From the IMG/VR virus record IMGVR_UViG_3300017528_000566: a stretch of DNA of 64,000 nucleotides. One strand, 5' to 3'. Below are positions 3,610-62,994 of this stretch, piece after piece. Positions within the stretch are counted from its first letter, which is position 1. Each line of letters starts with the position of its first letter. The DNA comes from an uncultured virus (IMG/VR IMGVR_UViG_3300017528_000566) (taxonomy: Duplodnaviria; Heunggongvirae; Uroviricota; Caudoviricetes). Below the pieces are notes generated by a model. That model had not been told where the DNA came from. It searched no databases and saw only the letters and a list, made by a program, of their open reading frames with translations. The position numbers were made by a program, and so were the translations under genes.

Positions 3610-4236
3610 CTATCCCTTGGACAAGGAATGATCGAGCTCGGCCTCCAGCACGTCTAGACGCTCCGGTCGTCCAGGGTCAAGGGCGGAGATCTCAGCCTCG
3701 CTGCGCCACTGGGTGAGAGCCGTCTCCAGCGGGGTCTCACCGGTGACCAGTCCGTTGTCGCCGTCTGGACTCATCACCAGGAGACTACCGACGTACCCGC
3801 GTACTGACTGAGCCTTCAGTCGGCGGAGCGCGTATTCACGCGTGAACGTCAGCCCGAAGTACCACGGGGACAGTTCCGAGTTTTCCTCCCACGTTGGGTC
3901 CAAGACGCGTCCCTGCTGATCGACGCACCAGGCGTGGTGCATGGGTAGACCAACCTTGGCGGGGACGGCGTAGCCCTCGCAGTAGAAGACCGCCTTGCGA
4001 TTGGCCGTCAGCAAGAGCGCATTCGCGAAACAAGCGTTGGGTTCAGACCTGCTCGGGCCGGACTTGCCAACGGGTCCCATTTCTCGCCCGTGATCCAGGA
4101 TCAGCTGGATGTAGTTCGAGGGCGGGAGATACCCCAGGTTTCGTGCATTGGCCCGCTGGACCGATCGCATTATGTCAGCTTCCATCCTCACGATGCGGAG
4201 CGGGTCGGCGGGGTCTGCTACGCGGAGGGTCGGCAT
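3610..4236 (-). CDS. papain/transglutaminase-like fold protein (putative C-H-D triad)
   Basis: CFANA ... YCEGYA ... HHAW ... DPTW motif series seen in phage proteins. Confidence 0.5.
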   Translation of the reverse strand: MPTLRVADPADPLRIVRMEADIMRSVQRANARNLGYLPPSNYIQLILDHGREMGPVGKSGPSRSEPNACFANALLLTANRKAVFYCEGYAVPAKVGLPMHHAWCVDQQGRVLDPTWEENSELSPWYFGLTFTREYALRRLKAQSVRGYVGSLLVMSPDGDNGLVTGETPLETALTQWRSEAEISALDPGRPERLDVLEAELDHSLSKG

Positions 4237-4320
4237 CTCTCCCTACCTATCACCCGCGTGACTTGCCGGGCAAGCATGGCTCACCTACGTGATTCTTTGG
4301 TGTAGCCGGTCTGGCTTTCT

Positions 4321-4656
4321 ATGCCTGACCTCGAGAACGCGGTGGTTCTCACACTCGTCTACAATTACTTGTTGGGGCTGCCCCTTGAGGGCAAAGCCAG
4401 CCAACCAGAATACTACTGGGCTGACGGGGTCCGGCTTCAAGTAGAGCGAGCGCCGGGCCTCACAGGCAGCTTGTTTGTAGTGTTTTCGGACGATCGGCTC
4501 ACGATCTGGTCTGAGATCCAAATGGAGCTCGGCGTGCACCCGGGGGTAACCAAGCTCACCGAGGACCTGCTGGCCGCTGAGATGCAGTTAAATAAGGTCT
4601 TTCACGCCTTGGTGTTGGGGTGGACGCTTCCGGTGTACCCCAACCCATTGATCTAA
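4321..4656 (+). CDS. hypothetical protein
   Basis: ATG ORF with GGTGTA at 4299-4304. Confidence 0.5.
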   Translation: MPDLENAVVLTLVYNYLLGLPLEGKASQPEYYWADGVRLQVERAPGLTGSLFVVFSDDRLTIWSEIQMELGVHPGVTKLTEDLLAAEMQLNKVFHALVLGWTLPVYPNPLI

Positions 4657-4674
4657 TCATGCATCCGCTAGGGA

Positions 4675-5973
4675 GTGAGCAAGCTCTTTGTTCTCGATAC
4701 TAACGTCCTGCTGCATGACCCCAGGGCATTATTCAAATTCGACGAACACGAGATCGTACTACCGATCTACGTCATTGAAGAGGTCGACCACTTCAAGAAG
4801 GACATGAACGAACTGGGCAGAAACGCCCGGACCATATCCCGTTTAATTGATGAGTTGCGAGCGCAAGGCCCCGGCACCCTACAAGAAGGAGTCAAGTTAC
4901 CCGATGGTGGAACCCTACGAGTCGTAGCCCCGGCGAAGGACCCGGACGGCAATGCCGATCAGAAAATCCTCCGCGTTGCCCTCGATGAAAGGAACAAAAA
5001 CCCCGATCGCTTGACCGTGCTGGTCTCGATGGACATCAACCTCCGGCTGCGGGCGGACGCCTTTGGCCTGCGGGCGGAGAGTTACGACGCTGGGCGCATC
5101 GGCTCTGAGGATCTCTACACAGGCCTCGTGCAGCACAGCGTCTCGCGAGAACTGGTCGACCAACTTGGGAAGAAGCAGCCGATCCCACTAGACCAGCTCG
5201 AGCTCGACTTGCACCCTAATGCCTGCGTGGTGCTGACCAACGAAGCCAATACCAAGCACTCAGCGCTTGGGCGATTCGACGCTGCTAGCGGACAGGTCGT
5301 GCCGCTGAGGGTCCCGCGTGAAGGTGCTTCTGGGATCAAGGCTCGAAACCTTGAGCAGAGTTTCGCGCTCGATATGTTGCTCAACGACAAGGTTCAGCTG
5401 GTGACTCTTGTCGGGCGCGCCGGCACCGGCAAAACGCTCATCGCCGTGGCTGCGGGGCTCCGAAAGGTGATATCGGACGGAACCTATGCGCGTCTTCTGG
5501 TATCCCGGCCGATCTTCCCCATGGGGCGCGACGTCGGGTATCTGCCAGGCACGCTGGAGGAAAAACTCAACCCGTGGATGCAGCCCATTTTCGACAATCT
5601 CGAGTACATCTTCAAAGGCTCTCGACTCGACACGGGGCGCACGTACCAGGAGCTCGTAGCGAGCGGCACTATCCAGATCGAGCCGCTCACGTACATCCGT
5701 GGTCGGACACTGCCTCAGCAGTTTATGATCATCGATGAGGCTCAGAACCTCACGCCGCACGAAGTCAAGACCATCATCACGCGCTGCGGCGCTGAAACGA
5801 AGATCGTATTGACCGGGGACCCAGACCAGATCGACAACCCGTACGTTGACTCGCAGAGCAACGGGCTGTCAGTCGTAGCAGAACGGTTCAAGGCGGAGCG
5901 TATCGGCGGACATATCACGCTCACAAAGGGTGAGCGCTCAGAGCTGGCAGAAGTAGCTAGCCAGCTCTTGTAA
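4675..5973 (+). CDS. phoH: PIN domain-PhoH family ATPase (PhoH2/YlaK type)
   Basis: N-terminal VLDTNVLLHDP (PIN); GRAGTGKT Walker A; GYLPGTLEEK, IRGRT, IIDEAQN, LTGDPDQID. Confidence 0.95.
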   Translation: MSKLFVLDTNVLLHDPRALFKFDEHEIVLPIYVIEEVDHFKKDMNELGRNARTISRLIDELRAQGPGTLQEGVKLPDGGTLRVVAPAKDPDGNADQKILRVALDERNKNPDRLTVLVSMDINLRLRADAFGLRAESYDAGRIGSEDLYTGLVQHSVSRELVDQLGKKQPIPLDQLELDLHPNACVVLTNEANTKHSALGRFDAASGQVVPLRVPREGASGIKARNLEQSFALDMLLNDKVQLVTLVGRAGTGKTLIAVAAGLRKVISDGTYARLLVSRPIFPMGRDVGYLPGTLEEKLNPWMQPIFDNLEYIFKGSRLDTGRTYQELVASGTIQIEPLTYIRGRTLPQQFMIIDEAQNLTPHEVKTIITRCGAETKIVLTGDPDQIDNPYVDSQSNGLSVVAERFKAERIGGHITLTKGERSELAEVASQLL

Positions 5974-16874: not shown

Positions 16875-17852
16875 TCAGACTTCCGGTTCAGCGAATATGT
16901 AGGAGGCCGCAACTCCAATCGCGAGCCCGAGCACGACTACGCCCAAGCTCACCAGCACAGGGATCTCTACCGAGAAGCCAAGGAGGCTCGTGAGCGGCCC
17001 ATGGAAGGCCTCCAGCAGCATCTTGCAGCCAATAAACACAAGGATGCCTACGACAGCCTTCTCGAGATGGCAGAGGTACTGCTTGGCGGCAACGAGCAGA
17101 AAGTACATCGATCGGAGGCCGAGAATTGCAAAGATGTTCGACGCGTAGATCAAGAACGGGTCCTTGGTGACAGCGACGACCGCCGGTACTGAATCGAAAG
17201 CGAAGGCAATGTCTGACGTTTCGGTCACCATCAAGCACAGAAACAACGGGGTCCCCTGCCAAGTCCCGGGACGCTTTGTGAAGAACTTGTCGCCATCGAG
17301 CCAGTTCGTGATCGGCCAGCCCAGGGTGTCGCGGAACCAGCGCACGGACCAGTGCTTAGTATAGTCCTTGTCGTTGCTCGGGTCGTCATCTGCATCGGTC
17401 AACATCGCGTAAGCCGAGTACAGCACCACCAGCCCGAACAGCGTATACACAACGATATGCATGACCGGGCCAAGGTTGCCGGCGAGCAGCGCCGCAGACC
17501 CTAGAGTGATGAACAGGAGTCGGAAGACGATCGCTCCGAGTATGCCGTAGTAAAGGATGCGATGCTGCAACGCGGGCTTAATTCCGAAACTCGCAAAGAT
17601 TGCCATGAACACAAACAGGTTGTCGACTGACAGCGATTTCTCCAGGAGATAACCAGCGGTGAACAGCCCTGCTTTTTCCGGGCCATCTACACACCAGATG
17701 TAGCCAGCAAACAGGAGCGACACGCCTACCCAAATGCCAGACCAGAGTGCAGCGTCGCTTAGGGTCACAGCTTTGCCATTCTTGTGCCCGTGCAAGTCTA
17801 GCCAGAGCATGAAACTAACGAGCAGCACAAATAGACATACCTCGATTACCAT
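16875..17852 (-). CDS. terC: TerC/Alx family membrane protein
   Basis: GYLLEKSLSVDNLFVF, QHRILYYGILGAIVFR, DIAFAFDSVPAV, SNIFAILGLRSMYF. Confidence 0.95.
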   Translation of the reverse strand: MVIEVCLFVLLVSFMLWLDLHGHKNGKAVTLSDAALWSGIWVGVSLLFAGYIWCVDGPEKAGLFTAGYLLEKSLSVDNLFVFMAIFASFGIKPALQHRILYYGILGAIVFRLLFITLGSAALLAGNLGPVMHIVVYTLFGLVVLYSAYAMLTDADDDPSNDKDYTKHWSVRWFRDTLGWPITNWLDGDKFFTKRPGTWQGTPLFLCLMVTETSDIAFAFDSVPAVVAVTKDPFLIYASNIFAILGLRSMYFLLVAAKQYLCHLEKAVVGILVFIGCKMLLEAFHGPLTSLLGFSVEIPVLVSLGVVVLGLAIGVAASYIFAEPEV

Positions 17853-20527: not shown

Positions 20528-21151
20528 TCAGGCGTTTTGAGCCAGCCAGGCGAGTTGATGGAATGAGAGATTGGTCGCATCCTCAGCACGCACGGTCGCG
20601 CAGAGATCAACGGTCATCTGAGTGTCGAGCTCGTCGAGGAACGCGCTTGCCTCAGAATCGTTGCCAACTTGAACGAACGTGAAGCCGATCTTGGGACGGC
20701 CTAGATCTCTGCCGGCGCGCTCAATGACCAGCTTGGCGCTCGCCATACTATCAGGACGCCCGTCTGTGTAGACAAGCACTACCACATTCTTGGACGACGT
20801 TTCAGCCTTCGCAACTGCTGCCTCAAGAGCGGCGGTCAGATTGGTCGAACCGCCAGGTTTGAAGGCTTTGAAGGTGCTCGCGACATTGAGCGAACCGACC
20901 TTGTCGAACACTTGCGCGCCGCTAGAAAACGGGACCACGGTGAGCCCGTCACTATCGAACTTCTCCGCCACCTGTGCCGTCTTGTAAACGTCCTCCTGGA
21001 CTTCGCCCAGGCGGTTGGTGCCAAGGCATCGGTGCGACTCGATGTTCATGGACCCGCTGTGGTCGACAAGGATGATGACATCGAGGCACTTCAGGTCTTC
21101 GTCGGTCAGGGCACCGATCGTCTTTTTCTTCTTCTTGAGGAATCCAAACAT
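20528..21151 (-). CDS. vWA domain protein (ter-associated)
   Basis: MIDAS DHSGSM, GGST, VYTDGRP, FVQVGND. Confidence 0.88.
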   Translation of the reverse strand: MFGFLKKKKKTIGALTDEDLKCLDVIILVDHSGSMNIESHRCLGTNRLGEVQEDVYKTAQVAEKFDSDGLTVVPFSSGAQVFDKVGSLNVASTFKAFKPGGSTNLTAALEAAVAKAETSSKNVVVLVYTDGRPDSMASAKLVIERAGRDLGRPKIGFTFVQVGNDSEASAFLDELDTQMTVDLCATVRAEDATNLSFHQLAWLAQNA

Positions 21152-22532: not shown

Positions 22533-23657
22533 TCATAATAGGTCCTTTATTCGCTCCAGATAGACCGCGAAGTCACCAGACCGGGGTAGCTCCCCCGCCT
22601 CGACCATTGCCTTGAGGCCACGCCAGACGCGCCCCATCTCGAGTGCTTGCTCACGTGTCATTGGGTCCTGGAAGCCAAGGCGAGCCATGACAGCTTCACC
22701 AAGGCCGCTCGGTAGAGCGCTCGGAACCGAGTCGAGCTCCTTGAGTTTGGCCAAACGCGTTTTGAGCTCGTGACATCGGCGCTGGACTTGCCCGCGCCGC
22801 GCCGAGCTCTTGGTTGTGCAGTCAGCTCGCGCTACCGCGAGCACGTCCTCCGCAAGGTCTCCGAGCTCCGAGCCCAGACGGCGAACAGCCGCATCCGTCC
22901 ATTCAGCTGAATAGGCCTCGACGAGGCCCAGCAGCCGAATGATCGACTCAACTCGGGTGATCTCCCCGGCCTCGAAAAGCCTGGACAGCCTTGCCGACTT
23001 CTTGAAGATGCCGGCCGAAGTCTGCTCGTGCCTGTAGAATGTGACCTCACCGCTCACGCGAGAGAACACGAGCGGCTTCCCACAGTCATGGAACAGCGCC
23101 GCCCATCGGAGCAGCGGTTGCGGCAGGGTCTGAATCACGACCCGCTTGGTGTGACCCCACAGGTCTTTGTGCCCAGAATCGCCGCCGCCGAACCCGATCA
23201 GCCTACAGAGGGCCGGGAACGTGGCCTTGAGCACGCCGGACGCCGCCAAGGTTTCGAGGTTGCGATCAGCGTCCCGCGCAATGAGTAAGCGGTCCCACTC
23301 TAGACGCGACAGGGTAGAGATGGAGTCTTGCGACCCTCCCTTATCCTTGCCCCGACCTTGAGTGTCCTTGCCCACAATACTTCTCGCTCCTCCATACACC
23401 GCACCGTCCGCAAGCAAGGCGACTGCCTTGACTTTCGAGCTTGCTGCCGCATATGAAAGCGGCCCACCGGTGATTGGAGTTGCACCCCCGTGTTCTAACA
23501 CTAGGTTTTCCAAGTGCCAGCCCTTTCGAGAGACATCACAGCCGGGCGCCACTTCTGTCACACATGCAAGCGCATCACTGACTGGGACGGCGAGCGCATC
23601 CAGAGCTGCGATGGGTGTGGCGAGCGGTTCCCGTGCGCTCATCTCACCTGCACACAC
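22533..23657 (-). CDS. HD-domain protein resembling the C-terminal half of CCA-adding/poly(A) polymerase (start uncertain)
   Basis: HKDLWGHT..V, LRWAALFHDCGKP, VTFYRHE, WTDAAVRRL, RADCTT. Confidence 0.8.
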   Translation of the reverse strand: MCAGEMSAREPLATPIAALDALAVPVSDALACVTEVAPGCDVSRKGWHLENLVLEHGGATPITGGPLSYAAASSKVKAVALLADGAVYGGARSIVGKDTQGRGKDKGGSQDSISTLSRLEWDRLLIARDADRNLETLAASGVLKATFPALCRLIGFGGGDSGHKDLWGHTKRVVIQTLPQPLLRWAALFHDCGKPLVFSRVSGEVTFYRHEQTSAGIFKKSARLSRLFEAGEITRVESIIRLLGLVEAYSAEWTDAAVRRLGSELGDLAEDVLAVARADCTTKSSARRGQVQRRCHELKTRLAKLKELDSVPSALPSGLGEAVMARLGFQDPMTREQALEMGRVWRGLKAMVEAGELPRSGDFAVYLERIKDLL

Positions 23658-24113: not shown

Positions 24114-25277
24114 TTAAGCGCTGAGTGCCCGGCTGACTTCGGCTTCGAGCTGCGCGGGGTCCAATAAGAGCTCCGGGCTCAACAGCAGCAGCTCGCGAGC
24201 CTTCAAGACGACTCGCTGGCGCGCCGCCCCGTGAAGCCCATGCCGCTCGAACAGTCGCGGTTGGTCAACGGGAGGGCTCTTGAGTGCCGCCATGAACACA
24301 TCGATCCCGCTTGGGTCGGCTTCTAGGATCTGCCGCAACCTCGGAATCTCACCCTCCTTCACCAAGGCAACGGGCGAGCCTCTTAGTTGCCACTCGAGAC
24401 CCCAAAGGTCGAGCAGCAGCAGTGGGTCGGCGCCTGCCAAGCCACGGCTCACCCCGACATGAAAGCCGGGCTCCTCTCTGAGGAGTCTGAGAATCGGCTC
24501 GTTCAGCCCCAGCTCTCTAATGAGCGGCACAGCTTCGCGTGGCCGGGGTCCGTGTAGAATGTCCTCTACTAGAATCTTGCGGACGGCGTCCCATGGCATC
24601 TGAATGAGCTTCAGGGCGTTTCTCTTGATCGAGCTCGCGACTTCCTCCGAGATCTTGAGCCCGTGTCGGACCGCGAATTTGATCGCTCGGAGCGTTCGGG
24701 TCGGGTCATCGGTGAAGGTGCGGTCGGGGTCGAGCGGAGTCTTGAGCACACGAGCCTCAAGATCCTTGAGCCCAGTTCCCAAGAAGTCGAGCACCGGCGC
24801 TGCCTCCACACCGTTCTCGAGGTCTGCTAGGCGCCAGAGCAAGGCGTTCACGGTGAAGTCGCGGCGCGCCAAGTCTTCTAGAATAGTTGAGCGCTCCACA
24901 AGGTGTGGTTTGTACCCCTTCCCTGACTCGCCGCCGTACGTCTCACGCCGTGCGTTGGCAATCTCCAGCACTTCCCCTTTTAGATCGTGCCCATCCAGCA
25001 CCCACGGGGAGCTCACCGTCAACAGTGCCACTCCGTACTGGTTTGTCACCAAGTTGGTACGCGCGGGAATGGCCTTCTGGAGCTCGCGCGCAAACCACCC
25101 GGAGTCTCGGTGAGCCCCTAGCGCCACGGAATCGATCACAAGATCGAGGTCTTTGATCGGCGCTTTCAGGAGATGATTTCTTACAGCGCCGCCAACGACG
25201 TACCCGTCATCAGCCATTCCTAGCCGCGTGCCCTGTGCGGCTAGAAACGTGAGCAGCGCCGACACCTTGTGTGACAT
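24114..25277 (-). CDS. class II tRNA nucleotidyltransferase (CCA-adding/poly(A) polymerase family)
   Basis: VVGGAVRNHLL...KDLDL, ARRETY, EDLARRDFTVNAL, DDPTRTLRA. Confidence 0.9.
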   Translation of the reverse strand: MSHKVSALLTFLAAQGTRLGMADDGYVVGGAVRNHLLKAPIKDLDLVIDSVALGAHRDSGWFARELQKAIPARTNLVTNQYGVALLTVSSPWVLDGHDLKGEVLEIANARRETYGGESGKGYKPHLVERSTILEDLARRDFTVNALLWRLADLENGVEAAPVLDFLGTGLKDLEARVLKTPLDPDRTFTDDPTRTLRAIKFAVRHGLKISEEVASSIKRNALKLIQMPWDAVRKILVEDILHGPRPREAVPLIRELGLNEPILRLLREEPGFHVGVSRGLAGADPLLLLDLWGLEWQLRGSPVALVKEGEIPRLRQILEADPSGIDVFMAALKSPPVDQPRLFERHGLHGAARQRVVLKARELLLLSPELLLDPAQLEAEVSRALSA

Positions 25278-26024: not shown

Positions 26025-26879
26025 ATGACAAAGATCTGCTGGATTACGGACCCGCACTTTAATTTCCTTCGTGCCTTCGGTGCGACCGCGGCCTTCGCAA
26101 AGGACATCTGCAAGACGTATGATCCCGAGGCTCTGATCATCACTGGCGACATCGCGGAGGGGCATAACATCGAGGGTCTCTTGGTGGAGTTCGCGGAGGG
26201 GGTCGATGACCGCCCTGTTTACTGGCTCGAAGGCAACCACGATTACTACAAGGCGTCGATTAGCAAGATGCAAGAGCGGTTCAGGGAGCTCGACATGGTC
26301 CCTAACCTGTTCTGGCTCGACACTGCGGAGCCTGTGCTATTCGACGACTTTGCGCTCGTTGGCAAGTACGCCTGGTATGACGCGCTCAACGGCAACCCGC
26401 AAAGAAGCCCGGTAGCTCTCTACGATTTTTCGTCCATCGGCGAGTTCAAGCGACTCTACAACGAGTATGACTGGGAGTTCATGGCCCATACGGGGAGCCG
26501 TAACCCGTTGCTCAACGCCTTCCGCAAGCTAGCGGCGGAAGCCGTCGCGGAGGTCCGGCCCAAGCTAGAACAGGCCCTGAAGCTCAAGCGTCACGTGATC
26601 TTTGCCACTCACGTCGCGCCTTTCGAGGGGGCCGCTTGGCATGAGGGCAAGATCTCAAACCCGGATTGGTTGCCGTGGTTCTCGTGCCGCCAGATGGGGG
26701 ACATGCTCGCGGAGGTCGCCGCCCAGCACCCAGACCACAAGATCCTCGTGCTCTGCGGGCACAGCCACAGCCCGGGGAAATACCAGCACGCGCCCAACCT
26801 CAAGGTGCTAACGGGCAACGCTGCCTACGGTGCCCCGGATGTTGCTGGCATCCTTACCGACCCGTTCGAGGAGTGGTGA
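26025..26879 (+). CDS. calcineurin-like metallophosphoesterase
   Basis: TDPH, TGDI, GNHD, THVAP, CGHSH. Confidence 0.9.
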   Translation: MTKICWITDPHFNFLRAFGATAAFAKDICKTYDPEALIITGDIAEGHNIEGLLVEFAEGVDDRPVYWLEGNHDYYKASISKMQERFRELDMVPNLFWLDTAEPVLFDDFALVGKYAWYDALNGNPQRSPVALYDFSSIGEFKRLYNEYDWEFMAHTGSRNPLLNAFRKLAAEAVAEVRPKLEQALKLKRHVIFATHVAPFEGAAWHEGKISNPDWLPWFSCRQMGDMLAEVAAQHPDHKILVLCGHSHSPGKYQHAPNLKVLTGNAAYGAPDVAGILTDPFEEW

Positions 26880-27624
26880 AGAGGCCATCGAGCAGATCCC
26901 GCAGTACATGCTCGTATCTGGCTCGGCACCTTCGCACGTGTACCTGGGCTTCAGACTCGACCGTTTCCCTATCACGTCGTCGATCGCTTCCGGTAACCCG
27001 TCCAGCGTGAAGGGTGTCCCATCTGGAGATCAGCTGTTCCGCGCGTCGGCTTGATCGGCGGTTGCCTTCGCGTTCACCAAATCCTCGTAGGTAACCATTC
27101 CACAGGGGCTGGAGCAACGCGATCAAGTTGGCTTCCGCAAATTCGACGTAGTTGTCTGGGAGCACCACAAATCTAAACGTGAAGTTCTCGACACCGAGGT
27201 CGGTGCGTTCGAGGCTTGTTAGATGCTCCCTCAACCTCACTGAAAGAGCGTTCGATATACTAGTCTGACATGCCCTTCCGATGTAGATCGGACATGTGGA
27301 TCCAAGTGACCGGATAGGGCGGTAGAGCTCAAGCTCTCCTTGATAGTAGACGGCATACACTCCATTCCCATTGAAGGTCAGCGCAGCCGAATCGAGAAAT
27401 GTGTATGGTCCATTTTCGACAATCCGCGTGCATAGTCGCTGTAAAACGCCTCGCAAGTCCGCGTCGCTCAACAGTGCGTAAGGGGCGACCGCATAAGCGT
27501 CTAATTCACGGACGGTAACCAGCGGTTCCGGCACGGGGATCGCCGGCCCCAGTCCCAGCATATCCAACAGGTCTTCAGGGTCACCGCAACTTTGATCTGT
27601 AAGCTTTGTGTGTGAACACTTCAT
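26854..27624 (-). CDS. Eco29kI-like GIY-YIG endonuclease
   Basis: GVYAVYY.G...Y, PIYIGRA, RLREH, E..LI....P.WN....GFG, SRWDTLH.GR. Confidence 0.85.
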   Translation of the reverse strand: MKCSHTKLTDQSCGDPEDLLDMLGLGPAIPVPEPLVTVRELDAYAVAPYALLSDADLRGVLQRLCTRIVENGPYTFLDSAALTFNGNGVYAVYYQGELELYRPIRSLGSTCPIYIGRACQTSISNALSVRLREHLTSLERTDLGVENFTFRFVVLPDNYVEFAEANLIALLQPLWNGYLRGFGEREGNRRSSRRAEQLISRWDTLHAGRVTGSDRRRDRETVESEAQVHVRRCRARYEHVLRDLLDGLFTTPRTGR

Positions 27625-34579: not shown

Positions 34580-34613
34580 TGGGTACCATTACACCGGTTG
34601 GCAGTTATCAGAA

Positions 34614-35807
34614 TCAGCGAGTAGGCATTGGAAACGGCCGATACTTCCGCTTGCCGACAACACCCAGCAGGATTTTGTCCAAGGTCTCGTGAGCGTCCCA
34701 CGCATGTTGCGGGCGCTTCGCTGGGCTAGTCTCGAGGCAACTTCGGAAGAAGCTCGCAACGGGCTCTGGCAACACTGAAGGGAATGAAGGTACCGTTGGC
34801 TTATTAGTGCTACCGCCGATAAGCACCATACACGTGCGGGCTGCCATGTAGATGTCCGTGGCCGCCGTTGGGGTCTCTCGATTCAAGACCTCCGGTGGGT
34901 AGTAGTCCCGGTACTGGTTGCTGATCGCCGGCACATGCGGGTGAGTACCGAACTCGTCTGTCTTGAGCATCGAATAGTACGACTTGGCAGGCTTCGCTGG
35001 CTTCGTTGGCTCGAGCTCGACCGCGTAGCTCCAGTCAACCAGCTTGGCCCCATGGTCGATCGGATGAATCATCACATGCGGCGGCAGGATCGCGCCGTGG
35101 ATGACGTTGTTGGCGTGTGCGTGCCCAATCCCGTGAAGGATGCGCTTGAACATCCAGATCATGTCCCTGAAGTCGATCCCGTCAGGGAACACTCGCAGCA
35201 CTTCATCGAGCCCGCGGTGCTGTGGAAACCAACTCATCACGTTGACTCGGCGCTGGTACCCCGGGCCGCTGATGATGAATGAGTCGCTCATCTTGGGAAG
35301 GAAGCGGAAGAACTTCTCCTCCTTGGCAGCCGGGGGGTACAGCTTGCCAAGGACCCGCGCTTCGGCTTCCGCAAGGTCGTTGTTGGAGCCGTCACGGGTG
35401 ACCTTGAACAGCTGCAGGTCGAGCAGTGAGTCGCCCAGATAGCCCGTGTAGAGCTCGCACAGGTCACCGGACGCCACTCGTTGAGTCAGGGTGTACCGAC
35501 GTCCATTCGCCTCAATGACCATCGGCGAAAACGGCAACTTCGGTGGCCCCGCTTTCACTCCCTTGTTTCCATAGGTGCCGGCTGTGACTTTGCGGTCCGC
35601 GGCTCCCTTGAGATTCGTGAGAGCCGTGAGCAGTTCGTTGGCGAGTGCGAACTCTGGCGGTTTGCCTATGAAGTGATCCGGGTGGATCTGCACGAGCAGT
35701 TGCTTGTAGGTGGTGCTGATCGTGCTGCCATCCACTCCAAAGAGGTCCTCGGGGCACTCTGCCGTGTGAGCGGCTACTATTTTGCTGGCGATTGCGTTCA
35801 GGTCCAT
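34614..35807 (-). CDS. J-domain / Ser-Thr kinase-like fusion protein
   Basis: YKQLLVQIHPDH (J-like); LFK, E, IHGAILP (atypical catalytic loop), KLVDW, YPPE, TDIY. Confidence 0.8.
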   Translation of the reverse strand: MDLNAIASKIVAAHTAECPEDLFGVDGSTISTTYKQLLVQIHPDHFIGKPPEFALANELLTALTNLKGAADRKVTAGTYGNKGVKAGPPKLPFSPMVIEANGRRYTLTQRVASGDLCELYTGYLGDSLLDLQLFKVTRDGSNNDLAEAEARVLGKLYPPAAKEEKFFRFLPKMSDSFIISGPGYQRRVNVMSWFPQHRGLDEVLRVFPDGIDFRDMIWMFKRILHGIGHAHANNVIHGAILPPHVMIHPIDHGAKLVDWSYAVELEPTKPAKPAKSYYSMLKTDEFGTHPHVPAISNQYRDYYPPEVLNRETPTAATDIYMAARTCMVLIGGSTNKPTVPSFPSVLPEPVASFFRSCLETSPAKRPQHAWDAHETLDKILLGVVGKRKYRPFPMPTR

Positions 35808-35824
35808 TTTGCCTTTTAAACGAG

Positions 35825-35868
35825 GGGATCTCGGTCAGTATGGGATGTGCCATACTGACCGAGATCCC
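35825..35868. terminator. perfect 19-bp inverted repeat closing the pentamer array
   Basis: gggatctcggtcagtatgg (35825-35843), 6-nt loop, ccatactgaccgagatccc (35850-35868). Confidence 0.75.
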
Positions 35869-36482
35869 AGTGCCGTGACTAAACAGGACAGAACACGACC
35901 CGACTAGACTTGCCATGACTTGCCTGCAATGACGTGACGGGACGTACGCGACGAACCCGACTCGACACATCGTGCCTGCTGTAACAAAACCTGACCGGAC
36001 TTGACTCAGCTAGAGGGGACTAGACTAAACACGCCTGCAATGACGGGACAAGGCACAACATGACATGCGCTGACTGGACACGACGCGACTAAGCTTGCCT
36101 GCGGGGACTTGACCAGACTGAGGCCAACTAGGCTAGACACGCTACACCTGCACTAACGAAACAGGACATGACTCGACTAAACTAGACGGGGATCTTCAAC
36201 TGTGATGACCAGAGCCGACATACCACGACATGACACACACGACAAAACTGGCCTGCAATAACTCGACACGAGATGACGTGACTCGACTAGACATGCCCCG
36301 ACTTGCCTGCGATGACCAACCATGACACAAGGCGACATGCCCCGACCCGACAAGACGGGACTCGACTGCAATGACAGGACTCGACGTTACCCAACGTGAC
36401 CAGACCGGACTAAACACGCCTGCGATGACGTGACGTGACTTGACTTGACACAGCTCGACTGGACACGACAGGACTTACCTGC
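35868..36482 (-). ncRNA. 11-unit array of GCAGGY + (NN-GTY)x8-11 units; putative guide-RNA array (non-CRISPR)
   Basis: boundary hexamer (+ strand gcctgc or variant) at 35868, 35922, 35974, 36033, 36097, 36146, 36198, 36251, 36305, 36364, 36418, 36477; interiors are GACNN/AACNN pentamers; the RNA role is inferred. Confidence 0.75.
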
Positions 36483-36506
36483 CACACCCAGACGTGGTGA
36501 TAACAC

Positions 36507-36971
36507 TCAAATCGAGGGTTGTTCACCCACGGTCAGAGATTCTGCTGCATTGAGCTGATCAATGGCACGGAAGACCGTGGCCAGCTCAGTGAGCGTTTGG
36601 AACTTCCGACGGAAGGCGGCGAGCTCGCGCCGCGCTTCTGCCAGTAGTTGACTGCGCATCTCGGTGTCGCTAAGGACAGTGATGACCTCGCGATATCCGC
36701 CGCCGCCGTGGCGATCGGCTTGAAGGCTGACGAACTTGCGCGTTTTGATTCGTTGCCCAGACTCAACCTCCATCGTGATCTTGACTCGGATGATGAGTTC
36801 ACGTGCTTGTTGTAGGCGCCACTGCACTCCACACTCAGTGTCATCCCATTGGAAATGTCCATGGAGCGCTGATCCTGGATTCTCTTTCGCCCATTCAACG
36901 ACCTTCGCAGGATTGACCAAGCCGTTGCGTTCTAGCTCGGTAATCTCTTGTGCAACTGCTTGAAAGCTCAT
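36507..36971 (-). CDS. RAMP-associated hypothetical protein
   Basis: P..VVE.A..P.S.LH..FQWDD...RL.QAR.LI; ATGA overlap with the RAMP gene. Confidence 0.75.
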   Translation of the reverse strand: MSFQAVAQEITELERNGLVNPAKVVEWAKENPGSALHGHFQWDDTECGVQWRLQQARELIIRVKITMEVESGQRIKTRKFVSLQADRHGGGGYREVITVLSDTEMRSQLLAEARRELAAFRRKFQTLTELATVFRAIDQLNAAESLTVGEQPSI

Positions 36972-37630
36972 TCGGCTGCCTCCTCGAGCTCAACACTCTC
37001 CTGCAGGCAGAAGGTTCCCCACCCGACACCAGTGCTCTGGCGCGAATTCGGGCGTCCCTCCCCGATACCGACTTGCTCACCGGCGCGAGCCAACAGGTTC
37101 AAGACCGACGACGTATCGAATTGGTCGGCATCGAAGCGAATCCGCAGCTTCAAGCACCACCGCTTCCACTGCGGACGAGCTCGCACGTCCATGCCGCCGT
37201 TTGCGTTACGAAGCGGTGCGTCCAGACGCCCACGGTCACCGTAAATGCGTACGAGGGGAGCACCGTCGACGGAATCAAAACCATCAGCAACGATAAAGAT
37301 TGCCAACTTCGCCCGCGCCATTACAACACCGCAGAGACGGCAAGCGTCGATCATCGCAGAGCGAAGGGCACCAGCTGGGACTCCGTACCAACCCTCCGTA
37401 GACCGGTGCGTTGCCTCCTCGAACTGTGCCTCAAAGTCCTTCGGGGCGAGATTCTTCTTGCCTTTTGCCTTTGAGCCGGCTTCCTGGTTGGCGATCATTT
37501 GGTGCACCGCCTTAGCGCCGAAGGCGTGGATTACCAGTGGTGCTGTGCCCACGACCGTGACCTCGACCGTCTGCATGTTTGCACGTCTGATTGTGACTGG
37601 CTCGTCTGTCGACTTTGTACGTGGTGGCAT
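36968..37630 (-). CDS. solo Cas7-like RAMP-fold protein
   Basis: V.V.GTAPLVIH (beta1), YGVPAGALRSAM (P..S.KG-equivalent helix), and C-terminal glycine-rich loop AGEQVGIGEGRP....GVGWGTF. Confidence 0.75.
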   Translation of the reverse strand: MPPRTKSTDEPVTIRRANMQTVEVTVVGTAPLVIHAFGAKAVHQMIANQEAGSKAKGKKNLAPKDFEAQFEEATHRSTEGWYGVPAGALRSAMIDACRLCGVVMARAKLAIFIVADGFDSVDGAPLVRIYGDRGRLDAPLRNANGGMDVRARPQWKRWCLKLRIRFDADQFDTSSVLNLLARAGEQVGIGEGRPNSRQSTGVGWGTFCLQESVELEEAAE

Positions 37631-37729
37631 TTGAGTGTTCTCTTTCTGATGTGAGGTAGAACCGCGAACAACATCTCGCGACTTCGAGCCCTATTACACC
37701 GGCACGCAGGGGCGAAGCACCGAGGGCCA

Positions 37730-39046
37730 TCAAATTCTCAGCTGGGGTGGGCGGTAAAGCTTGTCGGCCGCTGTCGGGCCTACGGAACACCACGATACGG
37801 GTCTCTCCAGGGCTTCTTCGATCCGGTCGATCAGCTCTTGTCTCGACTTGAGCTCGCGATAGACCGGTCGTGCCTTCATGAGACCGCTGGTGAGCTGCTC
37901 TTGAAATGAGAGCTTTGGCGGGAGCGCCTTCTGTACCTTCAGTCGCTTGAAGACCACCCCGAGGGGGAACTGGTACCCCGTGCAGATCTTGGGCCGCTCC
38001 GACTTGATCTTATCCAGGTTCGTCACGATGACTTCATCGAGGCGCCCCACTACTCGGCGCGCATATTGAGCAAGGACCGTGTCGAACGCTCCGACCCGGA
38101 ATCGCTGTTGATACACACCTGTGACGTTGTCTCGATCACCCTCGATCTCAATGGAGGGGTCGTCCGTTGGGAAGGGGCCGGCTCCGTGACGCGTTGTGTA
38201 GCCGCGGATGACCCCAATCCTAGTGGCCTCTGCTGAATCGAATCTGGCCTCGTCCAAGAGCTCAAGGGCATTCTTGAAGGTGGTGCTCGACCACGTCGTG
38301 TATGGATGGAATCCATAGTCCTGGTCCAGCAGGACGCCTTGAGCCCCCTCAAAGATCAGATCTCCGGACTGCTTCACGAGGTGCCGTAGACGAACTCGGT
38401 CGACGATGCGGAAGAGCTTGCCGATCTCTAGATAGCGGTCGACTTGAAAGTCCACGTCACTCTCGGTGATGCCTATCCAGTTGGGATCGTACTCGCTCAA
38501 GCCCAGGCCTGTGAACCGCGCCAGCTTGAGCTCGCGGCTAAAGGTGAGCTTCTTGAGTAAAGCGGTCCGGTTCTGCAGATCCTCAACCTTCAGGGCCATC
38601 TCTGGGTACGCGAGGAAGTCAGAGACTGTTTCGCCAATACCCATCCCGCAAGAACCATGACGGCCCTCTCCCCGCAGTGTCTCGGTCAACCGATTGGCGG
38701 CTACCTGGTAGAGATTGGTTACCAGCGCGTCGCGGTCTAGAGAGATCAATTCGAGTGGGTCCTTCACCCCCTGCTTCTCGAGTGCCTTGGCTTCGAGAAG
38801 CAGCGTGATCGGATTCACGAGCATGTACCTGCTCAAGTAGGTGTAGGCACCTGCAAATGTGCCAGCCCCAAACTGTCGGAACGTGTGATGTCGGCCATCG
38901 GGTGTAACAACATTGTGCCCCGCTTGAGCCCCGCCGTTGAATCTGACAACTGTGACGGGGCCGCTGGCACGTCTTGCCAGGAAGTCGCAATGGGCGCCCT
39001 TGCCCTCATCACCGAGCGCCAAGCCAACGATCAGACTGATTTTCAT
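37730..39046 (-). CDS. purA: adenylosuccinate synthetase-like protein
   Basis: GLALGDEGKG, VRFNGGAQAGHNV, HGSCGMGIG, FEGAQG.LLD, YTTRHGAGPFPT, TNLD. Confidence 0.88.
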   Translation of the reverse strand: MKISLIVGLALGDEGKGAHCDFLARRASGPVTVVRFNGGAQAGHNVVTPDGRHHTFRQFGAGTFAGAYTYLSRYMLVNPITLLLEAKALEKQGVKDPLELISLDRDALVTNLYQVAANRLTETLRGEGRHGSCGMGIGETVSDFLAYPEMALKVEDLQNRTALLKKLTFSRELKLARFTGLGLSEYDPNWIGITESDVDFQVDRYLEIGKLFRIVDRVRLRHLVKQSGDLIFEGAQGVLLDQDYGFHPYTTWSSTTFKNALELLDEARFDSAEATRIGVIRGYTTRHGAGPFPTDDPSIEIEGDRDNVTGVYQQRFRVGAFDTVLAQYARRVVGRLDEVIVTNLDKIKSERPKICTGYQFPLGVVFKRLKVQKALPPKLSFQEQLTSGLMKARPVYRELKSRQELIDRIEEALERPVSWCSVGPTAADKLYRPPQLRI

Positions 39047-39064
39047 TTTCTGGTCCCCGGTGGC

Positions 39065-39589
39065 ATGAGTTTCGGTGTCTACAGGTGTCCCTGTTGCGGG
39101 ATTCGCGAGGTCGAGCGCCGAAAGCCCAAGGGGGCCATTCCAAGATGTGGCGACTGTCTGCGGGCGAGCGCTGACGGCAGATTGGGCCGGCAACGCGAAA
39201 AGCGGCGGGGAGTGCTTTCGAGGCGGAGACGCATTCTTAGAAAGAGCCCCGCCTCGAAAGCGAACGAGAGTTCTGGCCGCTACTGCAGAAAGTTGAGAAG
39301 GTTCGGACTGCCGTTATCGTGGCTCGAGTTGTCCAACACTAGCTGCGGGATCTGCAAAACTAGAGACCCAGGTGGACGCGGTGGTTGGCACTTTGATCAT
39401 GACCATCGGTGCTGCGCTAAGGGCTGCCCCAAGTGTTTTAGAGGGCTGCTCTGCCATCACTGCAATGTCGGGCTAGGTCTTTTCAAGGACGATCCCGACC
39501 GCCTCTCCGCAGCCATCGACTGGGTCTCGAGGAACGAATCAGAGACGTGTGGTGGTGTTGATCTTACTCATGACACCTGTGACGGGTAG
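39065..39589 (+). CDS. endonuclease VII-like HNH nuclease
   Basis: CGIC...HFDHDH...RGLLCHHCNVGLGLFKDDPDRL..AI. Confidence 0.85.
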   Translation: MSFGVYRCPCCGIREVERRKPKGAIPRCGDCLRASADGRLGRQREKRRGVLSRRRRILRKSPASKANESSGRYCRKLRRFGLPLSWLELSNTSCGICKTRDPGGRGGWHFDHDHRCCAKGCPKCFRGLLCHHCNVGLGLFKDDPDRLSAAIDWVSRNESETCGGVDLTHDTCDG

Positions 39590-42688: not shown

Positions 42689-42764
42689 TGGTGTCCCCGG
42701 TAGGAGTCGAACCCACCTTCGCTCAATTTAGAGTTGAGTCGCCTGACCGCTCGGCCACGGGAAC
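42689..42764 (-). tRNA. tRNA with CUA anticodon (amber suppressor type), CCA encoded
   Basis: GTTCCCG/CGGGGAC acceptor, GCC-GAGCGGTCA-GGC D arm, CTCAA-CTCTAAA-TTGAG anticodon arm, GTGGG-TTCGACT-CCTAC T arm, ACCA end; 76 nt. Confidence 0.88.
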
Positions 42765-51718: not shown

Positions 51719-53068
51719 ATGCAGCAAACACAGCCGAGCACCTCGAAAACCAACACAGGCCACAAGCCCGCTACTGGCACCGCCGAATGGCTCCCAAGTA
51801 GGGGCGGTCGGTACGTCGCGCGTATCAGCGTTCCCGGTGCAGCGGGTCGGGTACGGGAGGAGATGCTGGACGAGAACGGCGCCCCCCTTTTCACCAATAA
51901 GGAGCGGGACTGGGACGCCGCCAAAAAGTGGGCGAGCAGCTATTCGACGTCTGTGCGTGACCCTGCAGTACCGACGGCAGAGCGGCTGCGCCACCAAGTT
52001 AAGGTCAGGGCGTGGGGTGAGGAATGGACTTCCGGCAGCCTGTTCAAAAAGTACGGTGAGGTGAAACGGCTCAAGATCAAGAAGTCTGCCGGTGACGATG
52101 TGCGCCGGCTTGACCAGCATGTTTACCCATACCTGGGCGAGATGTCGGTCGCGGGCGTGCAAGACCAGGACGTTGAAACCGCCTTTGCCAAGGCATGGGA
52201 AGCGTACGAAAAACGCTACGGAGAGCCGCCGTCGCAGGGCACTAAACGACAGGTATACATGGTCACACATCGGCTATTCGACCTGGCAATCCGCCCCGGA
52301 CGCTTGCGCGAAGACAACCCTGTTACCGATGACCTATTGCCCGCCAAGGGGTCACCAAAACTCTACAGCTATCTGTACCCGAGCGAGCTATTGGCACTCT
52401 TGAAGTGCGTCGATATCCCGATAGAGCGTCGCGTCTACTACGGAATCGCGACGTATACGGGGCTGCGCAAAAGCTCGATTCGGGTCAACGCTCGCGCTCG
52501 CAATGACAACGCCATAAAACTTGAGAGCTACCTTTGGTCGTCCATTGACCTGGATAACTCGACGATCCTAAGCCTTGTAAACAAGAACGACGTACCGCAG
52601 ATGTTTGCGCAAAACGATGCTGATCTTCCGGGTATTGGTTCGTTGATTCAGTTGCTTCGTCGCTGGCGAGAGTATTGCGGTTGGCCGCCTGACGATTCAC
52701 CCGTGGTCAAAACCCTCCATTGCAAAAAGAAAGCAGAAGCCGAAACGCTTCGGAAAGACCTGCTCTGCGCTGGCGTGACCCGCGGAATCCTCTTCAACAA
52801 CACCGACAAGATCCAAGCGCTTCGCTTTCACGACCTGCGTGCCACGTTCGTGACTTGGGCCAAGCGCGCCGGGAAAGGGGACGGCTGGATTGCCGATCGA
52901 ACCGGCCACATCACAAAAGAGGTCATGGACCGGTACAATCGAGCGGCACGAAACCTCGCCGATTTGCGTCTCGACCCTGGCCCGTTCCCGGACATCTCGC
53001 TCGCAATCCCCGAGCTCGCGGCGATCGACCTGTCGCAGTTGTCGGGGACAAGGCGCTACGCACGGTAG
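51719..53068 (+). CDS. int: tyrosine recombinase / phage integrase
   Basis: YTGLRKS (R), FHDLRAT (HxxR), RTGH, ..RY catalytic residues; N-terminal SAM-like region ending NPV. Confidence 0.9.
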   Translation: MQQTQPSTSKTNTGHKPATGTAEWLPSRGGRYVARISVPGAAGRVREEMLDENGAPLFTNKERDWDAAKKWASSYSTSVRDPAVPTAERLRHQVKVRAWGEEWTSGSLFKKYGEVKRLKIKKSAGDDVRRLDQHVYPYLGEMSVAGVQDQDVETAFAKAWEAYEKRYGEPPSQGTKRQVYMVTHRLFDLAIRPGRLREDNPVTDDLLPAKGSPKLYSYLYPSELLALLKCVDIPIERRVYYGIATYTGLRKSSIRVNARARNDNAIKLESYLWSSIDLDNSTILSLVNKNDVPQMFAQNDADLPGIGSLIQLLRRWREYCGWPPDDSPVVKTLHCKKKAEAETLRKDLLCAGVTRGILFNNTDKIQALRFHDLRATFVTWAKRAGKGDGWIADRTGHITKEVMDRYNRAARNLADLRLDPGPFPDISLAIPELAAIDLSQLSGTRRYAR

Positions 53069-62409: not shown

Positions 62410-62994
62410 CTAGACGAACCGATCCCGCTTACCCCACAGCGCCAGTTGCACCGTGGCGCGCTGCAGAGCCCCCTCACTCGCAACCCTACTCATAGGCAGG
62501 CTAAGCGGAAACTTTACAACTAGGCGGCCAACCCCTCGATTACTCCCCCACAACAGGAGCTCATGCGCAGGCCAGGAAATCTCCGGGATGTCCGCCTCAA
62601 ATAGGGTGTCTGGGTCCTTCGCGTACGCGAGCGTCACGTGCGGTTTGTAGACGGGGAACTTGTTGTTGTACTCGATCCCGGCCTCGTCCATCGCTTGGCG
62701 GAGGGCCTGTTGGAAAGCGTGGAGCTCGGGGGACCGCACTTTTGCGATCACGGGGACACCATCCTTACCCGCTGGAAAGGTGGTGATCAGATCTGTCGAG
62801 ACCGAAAACGGCATGGTCTTGGACGTCACCTCATAGAGGACCGGCAATAGCTGCCCGATGCGCTCGATTGGGGTATCATCCCCGAGATACACGACGGTGA
62901 TATGAAGATGGGCGCGCTCTGGCTTACCAGGCACAGGGAGTTCTCCGAGTACCCGTGAGGTTTCTTCTGGGACAGTAAACATAAGCGCGGCCAT
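62410..62994 (-). CDS. 2H phosphoesterase (2'-5' RNA ligase/ThpR-like)
   Basis: HITVVYLG and YKPHVTLAY, the two HxT motifs. Confidence 0.88.
   Translation of the reverse strand: MAALMFTVPEETSRVLGELPVPGKPERAHLHITVVYLGDDTPIERIGQLLPVLYEVTSKTMPFSVSTDLITTFPAGKDGVPVIAKVRSPELHAFQQALRQAMDEAGIEYNNKFPVYKPHVTLAYAKDPDTLFEADIPEISWPAHELLLWGSNRGVGRLVVKFPLSLPMSRVASEGALQRATVQLALWGKRDRFV

Follow-up and report, generated by a model that had tools for sequence, protein, structure and literature searches.

A putative phage-encoded VIPR locus with a staggered GUY/NN guide array on a jumbo-phage-like contig

Within a stretch of 64,000 nucleotides from an uncultured virus (IMG/VR record IMGVR_UViG_3300017528_000566; hereafter, the window), we characterized an intergenic array of five-nucleotide steps at positions 35868–36482 that, together with the two genes preceding it, probably constitutes a phage-encoded VIPR system with a staggered GUY/NN guide array (Y, pyrimidine; N, any base). 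We assign this identification a probability of about 0.82, and it rests on the presence of a Vipr homologue, on a conserved accessory gene, and on 38 of 51 relatives that carry period-5 arrays on the gene strand. VIPR (Viral Interference Programmable Repeat) is a CRISPR-related, RNA-guided DNA silencer of phages that was first described in 2026 (bioRxiv 10.64898/2026.04.26.720920). It consists of a phage-encoded ~20-kDa RAMP (repeat-associated mysterious protein) family protein, Vipr, an accessory vap gene, and guides termed vrRNAs, whose 9–16 pentamers alternate GGY with a hypervariable dinucleotide (10.64898/2026.04.26.720920). As shown experimentally in the same study, the NN pairs read double-stranded DNA under a 1-nt skip rule in which it is usually the codon wobble base that is passed over, and the targets are rival phages and satellites. 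Seven types have been distinguished, including—in the accessible legend of fig. S18—‘staggered arrays’ with a 1-nt guide overlap, and alternative repeat forms (NNNGG, YNNNG, NNNNG) as well as ‘a related consensus’ are allowed for (10.64898/2026.04.26.720920). Earlier publications already cover VIPR as a class, its staggered layout and the occurrence of non-canonical units; what is particular to the predicted system described here is G-U-Y in place of the G-G-Y of the published, tested systems.

The array lies between two minus-strand open reading frames (ORFs) and begins 24 nt past the vap stop, so that the locus reads vipr, vap (overlapping by 4 nt), 24 nt, array, hairpin. On the plus strand, positions 35800–36520 contain 68 GAC trinucleotides and 35 GAC pairs spaced exactly 5 nt apart. 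When such pairs were counted in 500-nt bins, the bin at 36000 held 28 and all other bins of the window fewer than six, and a scan of all trinucleotides revealed no further period-5 array in the 64 kb. Read on the minus strand, these are 35 GTC–GTC pairs at +5, whereas 1000 mononucleotide shuffles gave 0.32 such pairs on average and never more than 3. Both the extent of the array and its 5-nt rhythm had been proposed earlier by a model that was given only the letters and their ORFs (hereafter, the sequence-only reading), and both were confirmed. The array is unlikely to be coding because a 5-nt period is unreadable in frame and the region contains no long ORF. Searches of Rfam returned merely two sub-threshold matches to miRNA models, on the closing hairpin, and no DNA relatives, near or distant, were found in the phage collection.

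Across the 74 in-phase pentamers of the minus strand, the two variable positions carry 0.05 (N1) and 0.07 (N2) bits, as compared to 1.25–1.59 bits at the first two positions of the triplet. Position 1 is G in 68 of the pentamers (1.59 bits), position 2 is T in 63 (1.25 bits) and G in six, and position 3 is a pyrimidine in 73 (C in 61, T in 12). The canonical GGY triplet is thus not what we found here; the fixed triplet is G-U-Y. Fifteen of the 16 possible dinucleotides are used at NN. The earlier proposal was that information is confined to the dinucleotides, and the dinucleotide strings then listed for units 1–4 agree with our minus-strand units. Unlike in a slippage microsatellite—a distinction likewise drawn by the sequence-only reading—the strings differ between units: dinucleotides were identical at the same unit index in 27 of 255 comparisons (shuffle mean, 19.5; at least the observed number in 104 of 2000 shuffles), and neighboring pentamers shared the same NN in eight of 69 cases. 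Of the composition models compared, a uniform one fits NN best (log-likelihood −205.2, versus −207.6 for codon positions 1–2), and sense codon positions 1–2 in turn beat a genome dinucleotide model (log-likelihood ratio, 7.9; 0 of 5000 null draws).

Minus-strand boundaries matching GCAG[GT][CT] start at 36482, 36423, 36369, 36310, 36256, 36151, 36102, 36038, 35979, and 35927, giving spacings of 59, 54, 59, 54, 105, 49, 64, 59, and 52 nt. The rule 5n−1, equivalent to the 9+5n unit length stated previously, holds for seven of the nine, and the previously stated lengths were recovered in reverse order once the 105-nt spacing was split into 52+53. Each boundary takes the form AT[CT]-GCAGG[CT]: a 4-nt step, A-GGC, comes after a pentamer whose last three bases are CGC. 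Lengths of 5n−1 are explained by staggered guides that abut with a 1-nt overlap. Units 1–4 are all in phase, with G[TG]Y fitting 8–9 of the 9–10 triplets in each. The sequence-only reading had taken the regularity of these gene-proximal units, set against indels further along, as a hint of polarity; the former part stands, whereas the most distal unit fits G[TG]Y in ten of ten triplets and the off-phase units are numbers 5 and 9 (counting the 105-nt unit as one), leaving the hint a weak one. The hairpin that closes the array folds, as RNA, with −40 kcal/mol (z-score, −5.87), and none of 200 shuffled sequences was as stable.

The first of the two genes encodes a 220-aa protein that we identified as a Vipr homologue by profile and by predicted structure. 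When a profile built from 37 family members was compared with the PDB, it matched 36pp_D, the ‘SUSP1 Vipr protein’ (E = 7.5e-6; 28.8 bits), with query residues 150–196 aligned to residues 135–181 of the chain—the C-terminal part that bears the G-loop G-x-G-[DE]-x-R-P. An AlphaFold model of the protein (predicted local distance difference test score, pLDDT, of 84.2) had as its best Foldseek matches in the PDB exclusively Cas7-type backbone subunits, namely Csm3/Csm5, the Cas7 of type VII, and Cmr4. The top match was 9ash_F (E = 2.7e-5; template modeling (TM) scores 0.48/0.51), and the top matches had a probability of 1.00, E-values from 2.7e-5 to 1e-3 and TM scores of 0.4–0.5; the fold library closes on 2026-04-08, and there is no Vipr entry among the matches listed. 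The protein further matches phrog_4652, yields no match in Pfam or PADLOC, and has 912 homologues at E ≤ 1e-3. The ORFs of vipr and vap are both intact, and the invariant residues of the Vipr family are present.

The 154-aa product of the second gene matches phrog_15946, with no match to Pfam, cas or PADLOC models and nothing detectably similar in the PDB. Its model (pLDDT 93.6) comprises an N-terminal portion of ~97 residues followed by a C-terminal helical hairpin, and the N-terminus weakly resembles winged-helix DNA binders of the forkhead, Z-alpha, and PadR kinds (Foldseek E ≥ 0.23; VIA Z ≤ 6). Single-sequence locus searches with this protein, and with the kinase encoded on the other side of the array, returned none in viral_contigs. 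As regards a CRISPR context, the window contains no short-spaced direct repeats apart from this array, and none of eight neighboring proteins gave a cas match.

The association of array and gene pair was recovered from both directions, since a scan for the DNA pattern led to homologues of the 220-aa protein and a scan for the protein led to arrays. When viral contigs were scanned for the bare pattern (GAC-NN)x5+GAC, at least 135 loci were obtained, and many of these are long arrays with variable NN. Using tblastn with the window’s neighboring proteins, we located homologues of the 220-aa protein beside arrays at the loci we numbered L006, L032/L033, L043, L065, L072, and L079, and homologues of the 154-aa protein at L043, L065, L072, and L092. 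A protein-only scan that took one genome per species (genome_contigs) gave 51 genomic loci, of which 37 contain at least eight GGC+5 pairs and one (L184) contains 298 GTC+5 pairs; the remaining 13 have no array at the eight-pair threshold, several of them being cut by contig ends. In 42 of these 51, vipr is followed on its own strand by a homologue of the 154-aa protein, and such a homologue also lies downstream of vipr in Mycobacterium phage Saal (genes 51/52), in Cy-LDV1, and at L043, L065, and L072. In Cyanophage Cy-LDV1 (51% identity) as in phage Saal (34% identity), a GGC/NN array adjoins the gene pair. The GGC-type relatives share the boundary grammar described above: we counted 174 of the corresponding GGC-A-GGC steps, and the spacing is 5n−1 in 85 of 124 cases (modes, 44–59 nt).

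Triplets set two bases apart could alternatively mark a periodic protein-binding site in which the dinucleotides are mere spacers. TRAP sites are triplets with 2-nt spacers, which corresponds to the 3+2 layout seen here, and T7-type primase sites (5′-GTC-3′) resemble NNGTC pentamers; that NN composition is indistinguishable from uniform would likewise suit spacers, whether in a TRAP-like RNA array, a sponge or decoy, a centromere or pac site, or a series of primase sites. We nevertheless consider this highly improbable, given that the neighboring gene encodes a Vipr homologue and not TRAP, ParB/RHH, a terminase or a primase, that synteny and unit grammar are those of VIPR arrays, and that priming requires neither strict phasing nor bounded units of 8–11 repeats. 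Because of this same neighbor, primase sites or an origin, a TRAP-like site, and a centromere or pac site were dropped as candidates. A type III toxin–antitoxin layout, which would have combined array, hairpin, and the adjacent kinase gene, was dropped as well, the neighbor being a Vipr homologue and the kinase being absent from the relatives’ loci.

Returning to the proposed VIPR system, its RNA sense is likely the minus strand, that is, GUY. Among the protein-found relatives, each of the 38 that have arrays carries the G-first triplet on the strand of vipr; degeneracy falls, as in GGY, on the last base of the triplet, a pyrimidine; the GTC triplets keep the phase of the boundary GGC; and at L006—with 45% identity the closest GTC-type relative—the array is followed, on the GTC strand, by a canonical intrinsic terminator (1732–1757) that includes a T run. 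As the boundary is in phase, G-G-C aligns onto G-U-C rather than onto a shifted YNNNG register. Transcription from the plus strand would instead produce GAC/NN (R-A-C; R, purine) guides, for which there is precedent: ‘GAC/NN’ is named among non-canonical VIPR units near Vipr-like folds in the accessible part of a later preprint (10.64898/2026.10.21.760802), and two loci on viral contigs (L016 and L065; 22–28% identity) have GAC/NN, not GTC/NN, on the gene strand. At these two loci H or L replaces the thumb arginine that contacts the second base (G2) in SUSP1, and a true GAY-type VIPR probably exists as well. For the present array, however, we regard plus-strand guides as improbable. Beyond the strand bias among relatives and the terminator at L006, they would place the degenerate position first (R) instead of third, and the in-phase boundary GGC is canonical on the minus strand only. 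The accessible text of 10.64898/2026.10.21.760802, for its part, gives neither an orientation of its logos nor a mechanism.

GTC units adjoin Vipr homologues elsewhere, too, at L006, L032/L033, L043, L079, and L184. The last of these, in a Gemmatales metagenome-assembled genome, is a 1.9-kb GTC-type array (3717–5594) downstream of a Vipr homologue (41% identity); its units are very short, its dinucleotides of low diversity (mostly GC, AC, TT, and TG) and its boundary reads GCGTC-AGTC, and it looks expanded or partly slippage-driven, unlike the array in the window. On one 68-kb viral contig (L058–L063), we noticed many separate GAC/NN arrays spread over ~8 kb. In a tree of 57 Vipr rows—quick and poorly resolved, and built without duplicate sequences or rows of fewer than 150 aligned residues—the GTC-type rows, six in all, do not group together, and its well-supported branches cannot be reconciled with fewer than two origins of the GTC type. 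The terms ‘GUC’, ‘GTC’, and ‘GUY’ are absent from the main text of 10.64898/2026.04.26.720920 and from the accessible text of 10.64898/2026.10.15.759431.

These observations bear on how Vipr reads its scaffold. According to the accessible part of the structural preprint (10.64898/2026.04.26.720927), one protomer sits on each repeat, H17 and D177 read G1, the contacts to G2 come from R138 and W178, and the Y3 pocket shuts out purines. Our comparison indicates that U is a possible middle base of the fixed triplet among close kin (41–53% identity) of GGC-using Viprs, which matters for scaffold reading by the protein, for engineered orthogonal scaffolds, and for a possible use in phage–phage conflict. 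Tentatively, GUY might represent a separate VIPR ‘dialect’: a Vipr that loads guides with the GUY scaffold only, that arose more than once within the GGC family—consistent with the repeated origins required by the tree—and that is insulated from hijacking or decoy GGY guides supplied by rivals. We hold this to be doubtful. If true, it would shield the phage’s silencing machinery from the guides of rival elements, which connects to the reported guide hijacking by satellites that supply GGY guides of their own (10.64898/2026.10.15.759431, accessible text).

By homology with the published systems, minus-strand transcription would take in vipr (37630..36968), then vap (36971..36507) and the array (36482..35868), as far as the hairpin. 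The resulting array RNA would be cut into, or read as, ~11 staggered guides of 8–11 pentamers each. Protomers of the 220-aa Vipr would then polymerize along each guide, one per pentamer, sequestering the fixed triplet and exposing the two variable bases, and the exposed NN pairs would recognize the double-stranded DNA of a rival mobile element as NN-x-NN-x and silence it, the skipped base usually being a codon wobble position. The sequence-only reading had arrived at much the same picture, namely a guide array coded in dinucleotides whose gapped, NNx-type targets tolerate wobble changes. This is the published VIPR code, and its support at this locus comes from homology and family membership. 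A reader supplied with nothing but sequence was able to recover the gapped code.

The same reading had called for a search of gapped targets, and here it found no backing: with skips of 0–3 nt, neither the window nor 553 kb of other loci yielded anything above shuffled controls, in a test that was underpowered. Within the window, eight guides gave no self-match (mismatches allowed; 20 shuffles per guide), which speaks for a VIPR system in that self-targets are likewise described as lacking from the systems of 10.64898/2026.04.26.720920. Further target searches are among several results that weigh against a functional VIPR system at this locus. The exact 1-skip patterns of units 1, 3, 4, 7, and 10 had zero matches each in viral_contigs, although such collection scans considered exact matches for five of the eight clean guides and were underpowered. 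In metagenome_contigs, unit 1 matched four loci (three distinct sequences) in unrelated bacterial contexts with GC contents of 0.38–0.53: inside a small bacterial gene between dehydrogenase-like ORFs (as read from translations), antisense to a 350-aa ORF whose contig has a GC content of 0.38 (two loci of identical sequence), and within a 978-aa ORF, out of wobble phase. We treated these matches as chance, their number being about that expected, by rough estimate, for an A-rich 20-base pattern. The mismatch-tolerant search of the 553 kb of fetched loci did not rise above shuffled guides, the sole exception being loci that had originally been fetched by the very same pattern.

To these are added features of the protein and of the locus. 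At the position of W178, the residue that stacks on G2 in SUSP1, our protein has a glycine, as do 34 of 35 GGC-type rows and three of six GTC-type rows, and no column consistently separates GTC-type from GGC-type Viprs across the six GTC-type rows. A scan found no sigma-70-like promoter at the locus, and a terminator consensus scan did not call the closing hairpin, which has no U run. Finally, exact GTC accounts for 52 of the 74 triplets and the other 22 deviate, which, along with the off-phase units 5 and 9, may reflect decay in part of the array. One could extend this to the array as a whole and see in it a decaying or orphan remnant of VIPR descent, whose guides ceased to function through drift from GGC or through lost function; the deviating triplets, the indels in units 5 and 9, and the lack of targets found in the guide searches would all fit. 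We judge such a remnant quite improbable. Drift would not give T at 63 of 74 middle bases while keeping G at 68 of 74 first and a pyrimidine at 73 of 74 third positions; no fewer than five further loci (those listed above) have the GTC unit next to a Vipr homologue; and the vipr and vap ORFs are intact, with the family’s invariant residues in place.

The VIPR locus is carried on a 433,843-bp phage-like contig, and the content of the window is jumbo-phage-like (Table 1). Directly upstream of vipr lies a gene for a PurZ-type adenylosuccinate synthetase, which is overlapped by an endonuclease VII gene on the plus strand (38885–39589); the former hints that 2-aminoadenine may replace adenine in the DNA of this phage. 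The only tRNA in the window is a putative amber suppressor, possibly a sign that TAG is reassigned in part of this large phage. On the far side of the array, the gene of a J-domain-like kinase starts 16 nt after the hairpin. It is probably not part of the VIPR system because no such gene was found at the VIPR loci of relatives.

All sequencing runs that contain this stretch are labeled soil metagenome, and no RNA run is listed among them. In one of them, short contigs from the 34600–37700 region are ~85–90% identical to the kinase and vap genes, and one such contig loses all similarity shortly beyond the kinase start at 35807; that run may also contain a related strain whose sequence differs at this end of the array. 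The contigs of two DNA runs contained the window’s sequence and some diverged pieces, which yielded no usable information on variation of the array.

Table 1 Features of the putative VIPR locus and of the surrounding window
Feature	Position	Strand	Remarks
Vipr homologue, 220-aa stand-alone Cas7-like RAMP protein	36968..37630	−	Profile, AlphaFold model, Foldseek
vap-like accessory gene, 154 aa	36507..36971	−	Start overlaps vipr stop by 4 nt
Staggered vrRNA-type guide array (putative)	35868..36482	−	10 recognizable boundaries; ~11 units of 8–11 NN+GUY pentamers
Unit 1	36424..36482	−	59 nt; 10 pentamers, 9 with GTC; cleanest guide
Units 2–4	36257..36423	−	54, 59, 54 nt; all in phase
Unit 5	36152..36256	−	105 nt, equal to two units (52+53) across a degenerate boundary; 4-nt slip
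Units 6–10	35868..36151	−	49, 64, 59, 52, ~60 nt; unit 9 off phase, two 4-nt steps
Hairpin closing the array	35823..35868	−	19 bp; candidate terminator or 3′ end; no U run
PurZ-type adenylosuccinate synthetase	37730–39193	−	phrog_1211 ‘2-aminooxy adenylosuccinate synthetase’, E = 1e-76; Pfam Adenylsucc_synt
tRNA, anticodon CUA	42689–42764	−	Amber suppressor; ‘Pyl’ by ARAGORN; only tRNA in window
397-aa protein, N-terminal J-domain-like HPD motif and Ser/Thr kinase domain	34614–35807	−	phrog_3043; PADLOC MkoA/PglW/PD-T4-6-like kinase models
PhoH+PIN	4675–5973		
TerC	16875–17852		
vWA/TerF-like	20528–21151		
HD	22533–23657		
Nucleotidyltransferase head domain	24114–25277		
Eco29kI-like endonuclease	26854–27624		
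Integrase-like gene	51719–53068		
LigT/Acb1-like 2H phosphoesterase	62410–62994		

Among known systems, the closest point of reference is the type II VIPR of Escherichia phage SUSP1 (10.64898/2026.04.26.720920 and 10.64898/2026.04.26.720927, accessible parts; PDB 36pp). The two have in common a small stand-alone RAMP protein, an accessory gene, and guides of pentamers with three fixed and two variable bases, encoded by a phage outside of a CRISPR locus. They differ in the fixed triplet—GGY in SUSP1, GUY here—and in the residue at the position of W178, a glycine in our protein; moreover, the SUSP1 vrRNA of ~100 nt ends in a conserved ~40-nt 3′ tail with a pseudoknot, whereas our units measure 49–64 nt with only a 9-nt boundary. 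The layout is closer to that of the staggered arrays (fig. S18 legend of 10.64898/2026.04.26.720920, as far as accessible), 5n−1 being common to this array and to the GGC-type relatives.

With the backbone of Class 1 CRISPR systems (Cas7/Csm3 on crRNA), the predicted system shares the RAMP fold and, going by the accessible parts of the preprints on VIPR, one protomer per fixed guide step and base flipping induced by the thumb. The step is 6 nt with one flipped base in Class 1 CRISPR and 5 nt with three hidden bases in VIPR, and the window contains no Class 1 CRISPR repeats, cas genes, or adaptation module. The likeness to TRAP ends at a triplet with a 2-nt spacer: here the triplet is a different one, the units are bounded, and there is no TRAP-like gene, for which we rejected that comparison.

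The accessible text of 10.64898/2026.10.21.760802 describes 21 clusters of period-5 arrays with non-canonical units (e.g., GAC/NN, CAC/NN, and WGT/NN) near Vipr-like folds; a period-5 array, a triplet other than GGY, and a Vipr-like neighbor are thus common to those clusters and to our locus. The arrays there are ‘repeated 10 times’, as compared to ~11 staggered units of 8–11 repeats here. To RNA-guided DNA binders known only from preprints of 2026, this locus adds a well-delimited candidate of the GUY type with ~11 staggered guides. The published GAC/NN class corresponds to a plus-strand reading of our array, for which the evidence favors GUY on the gene strand, and that class may be the same as the one described here, read on the opposite strand.

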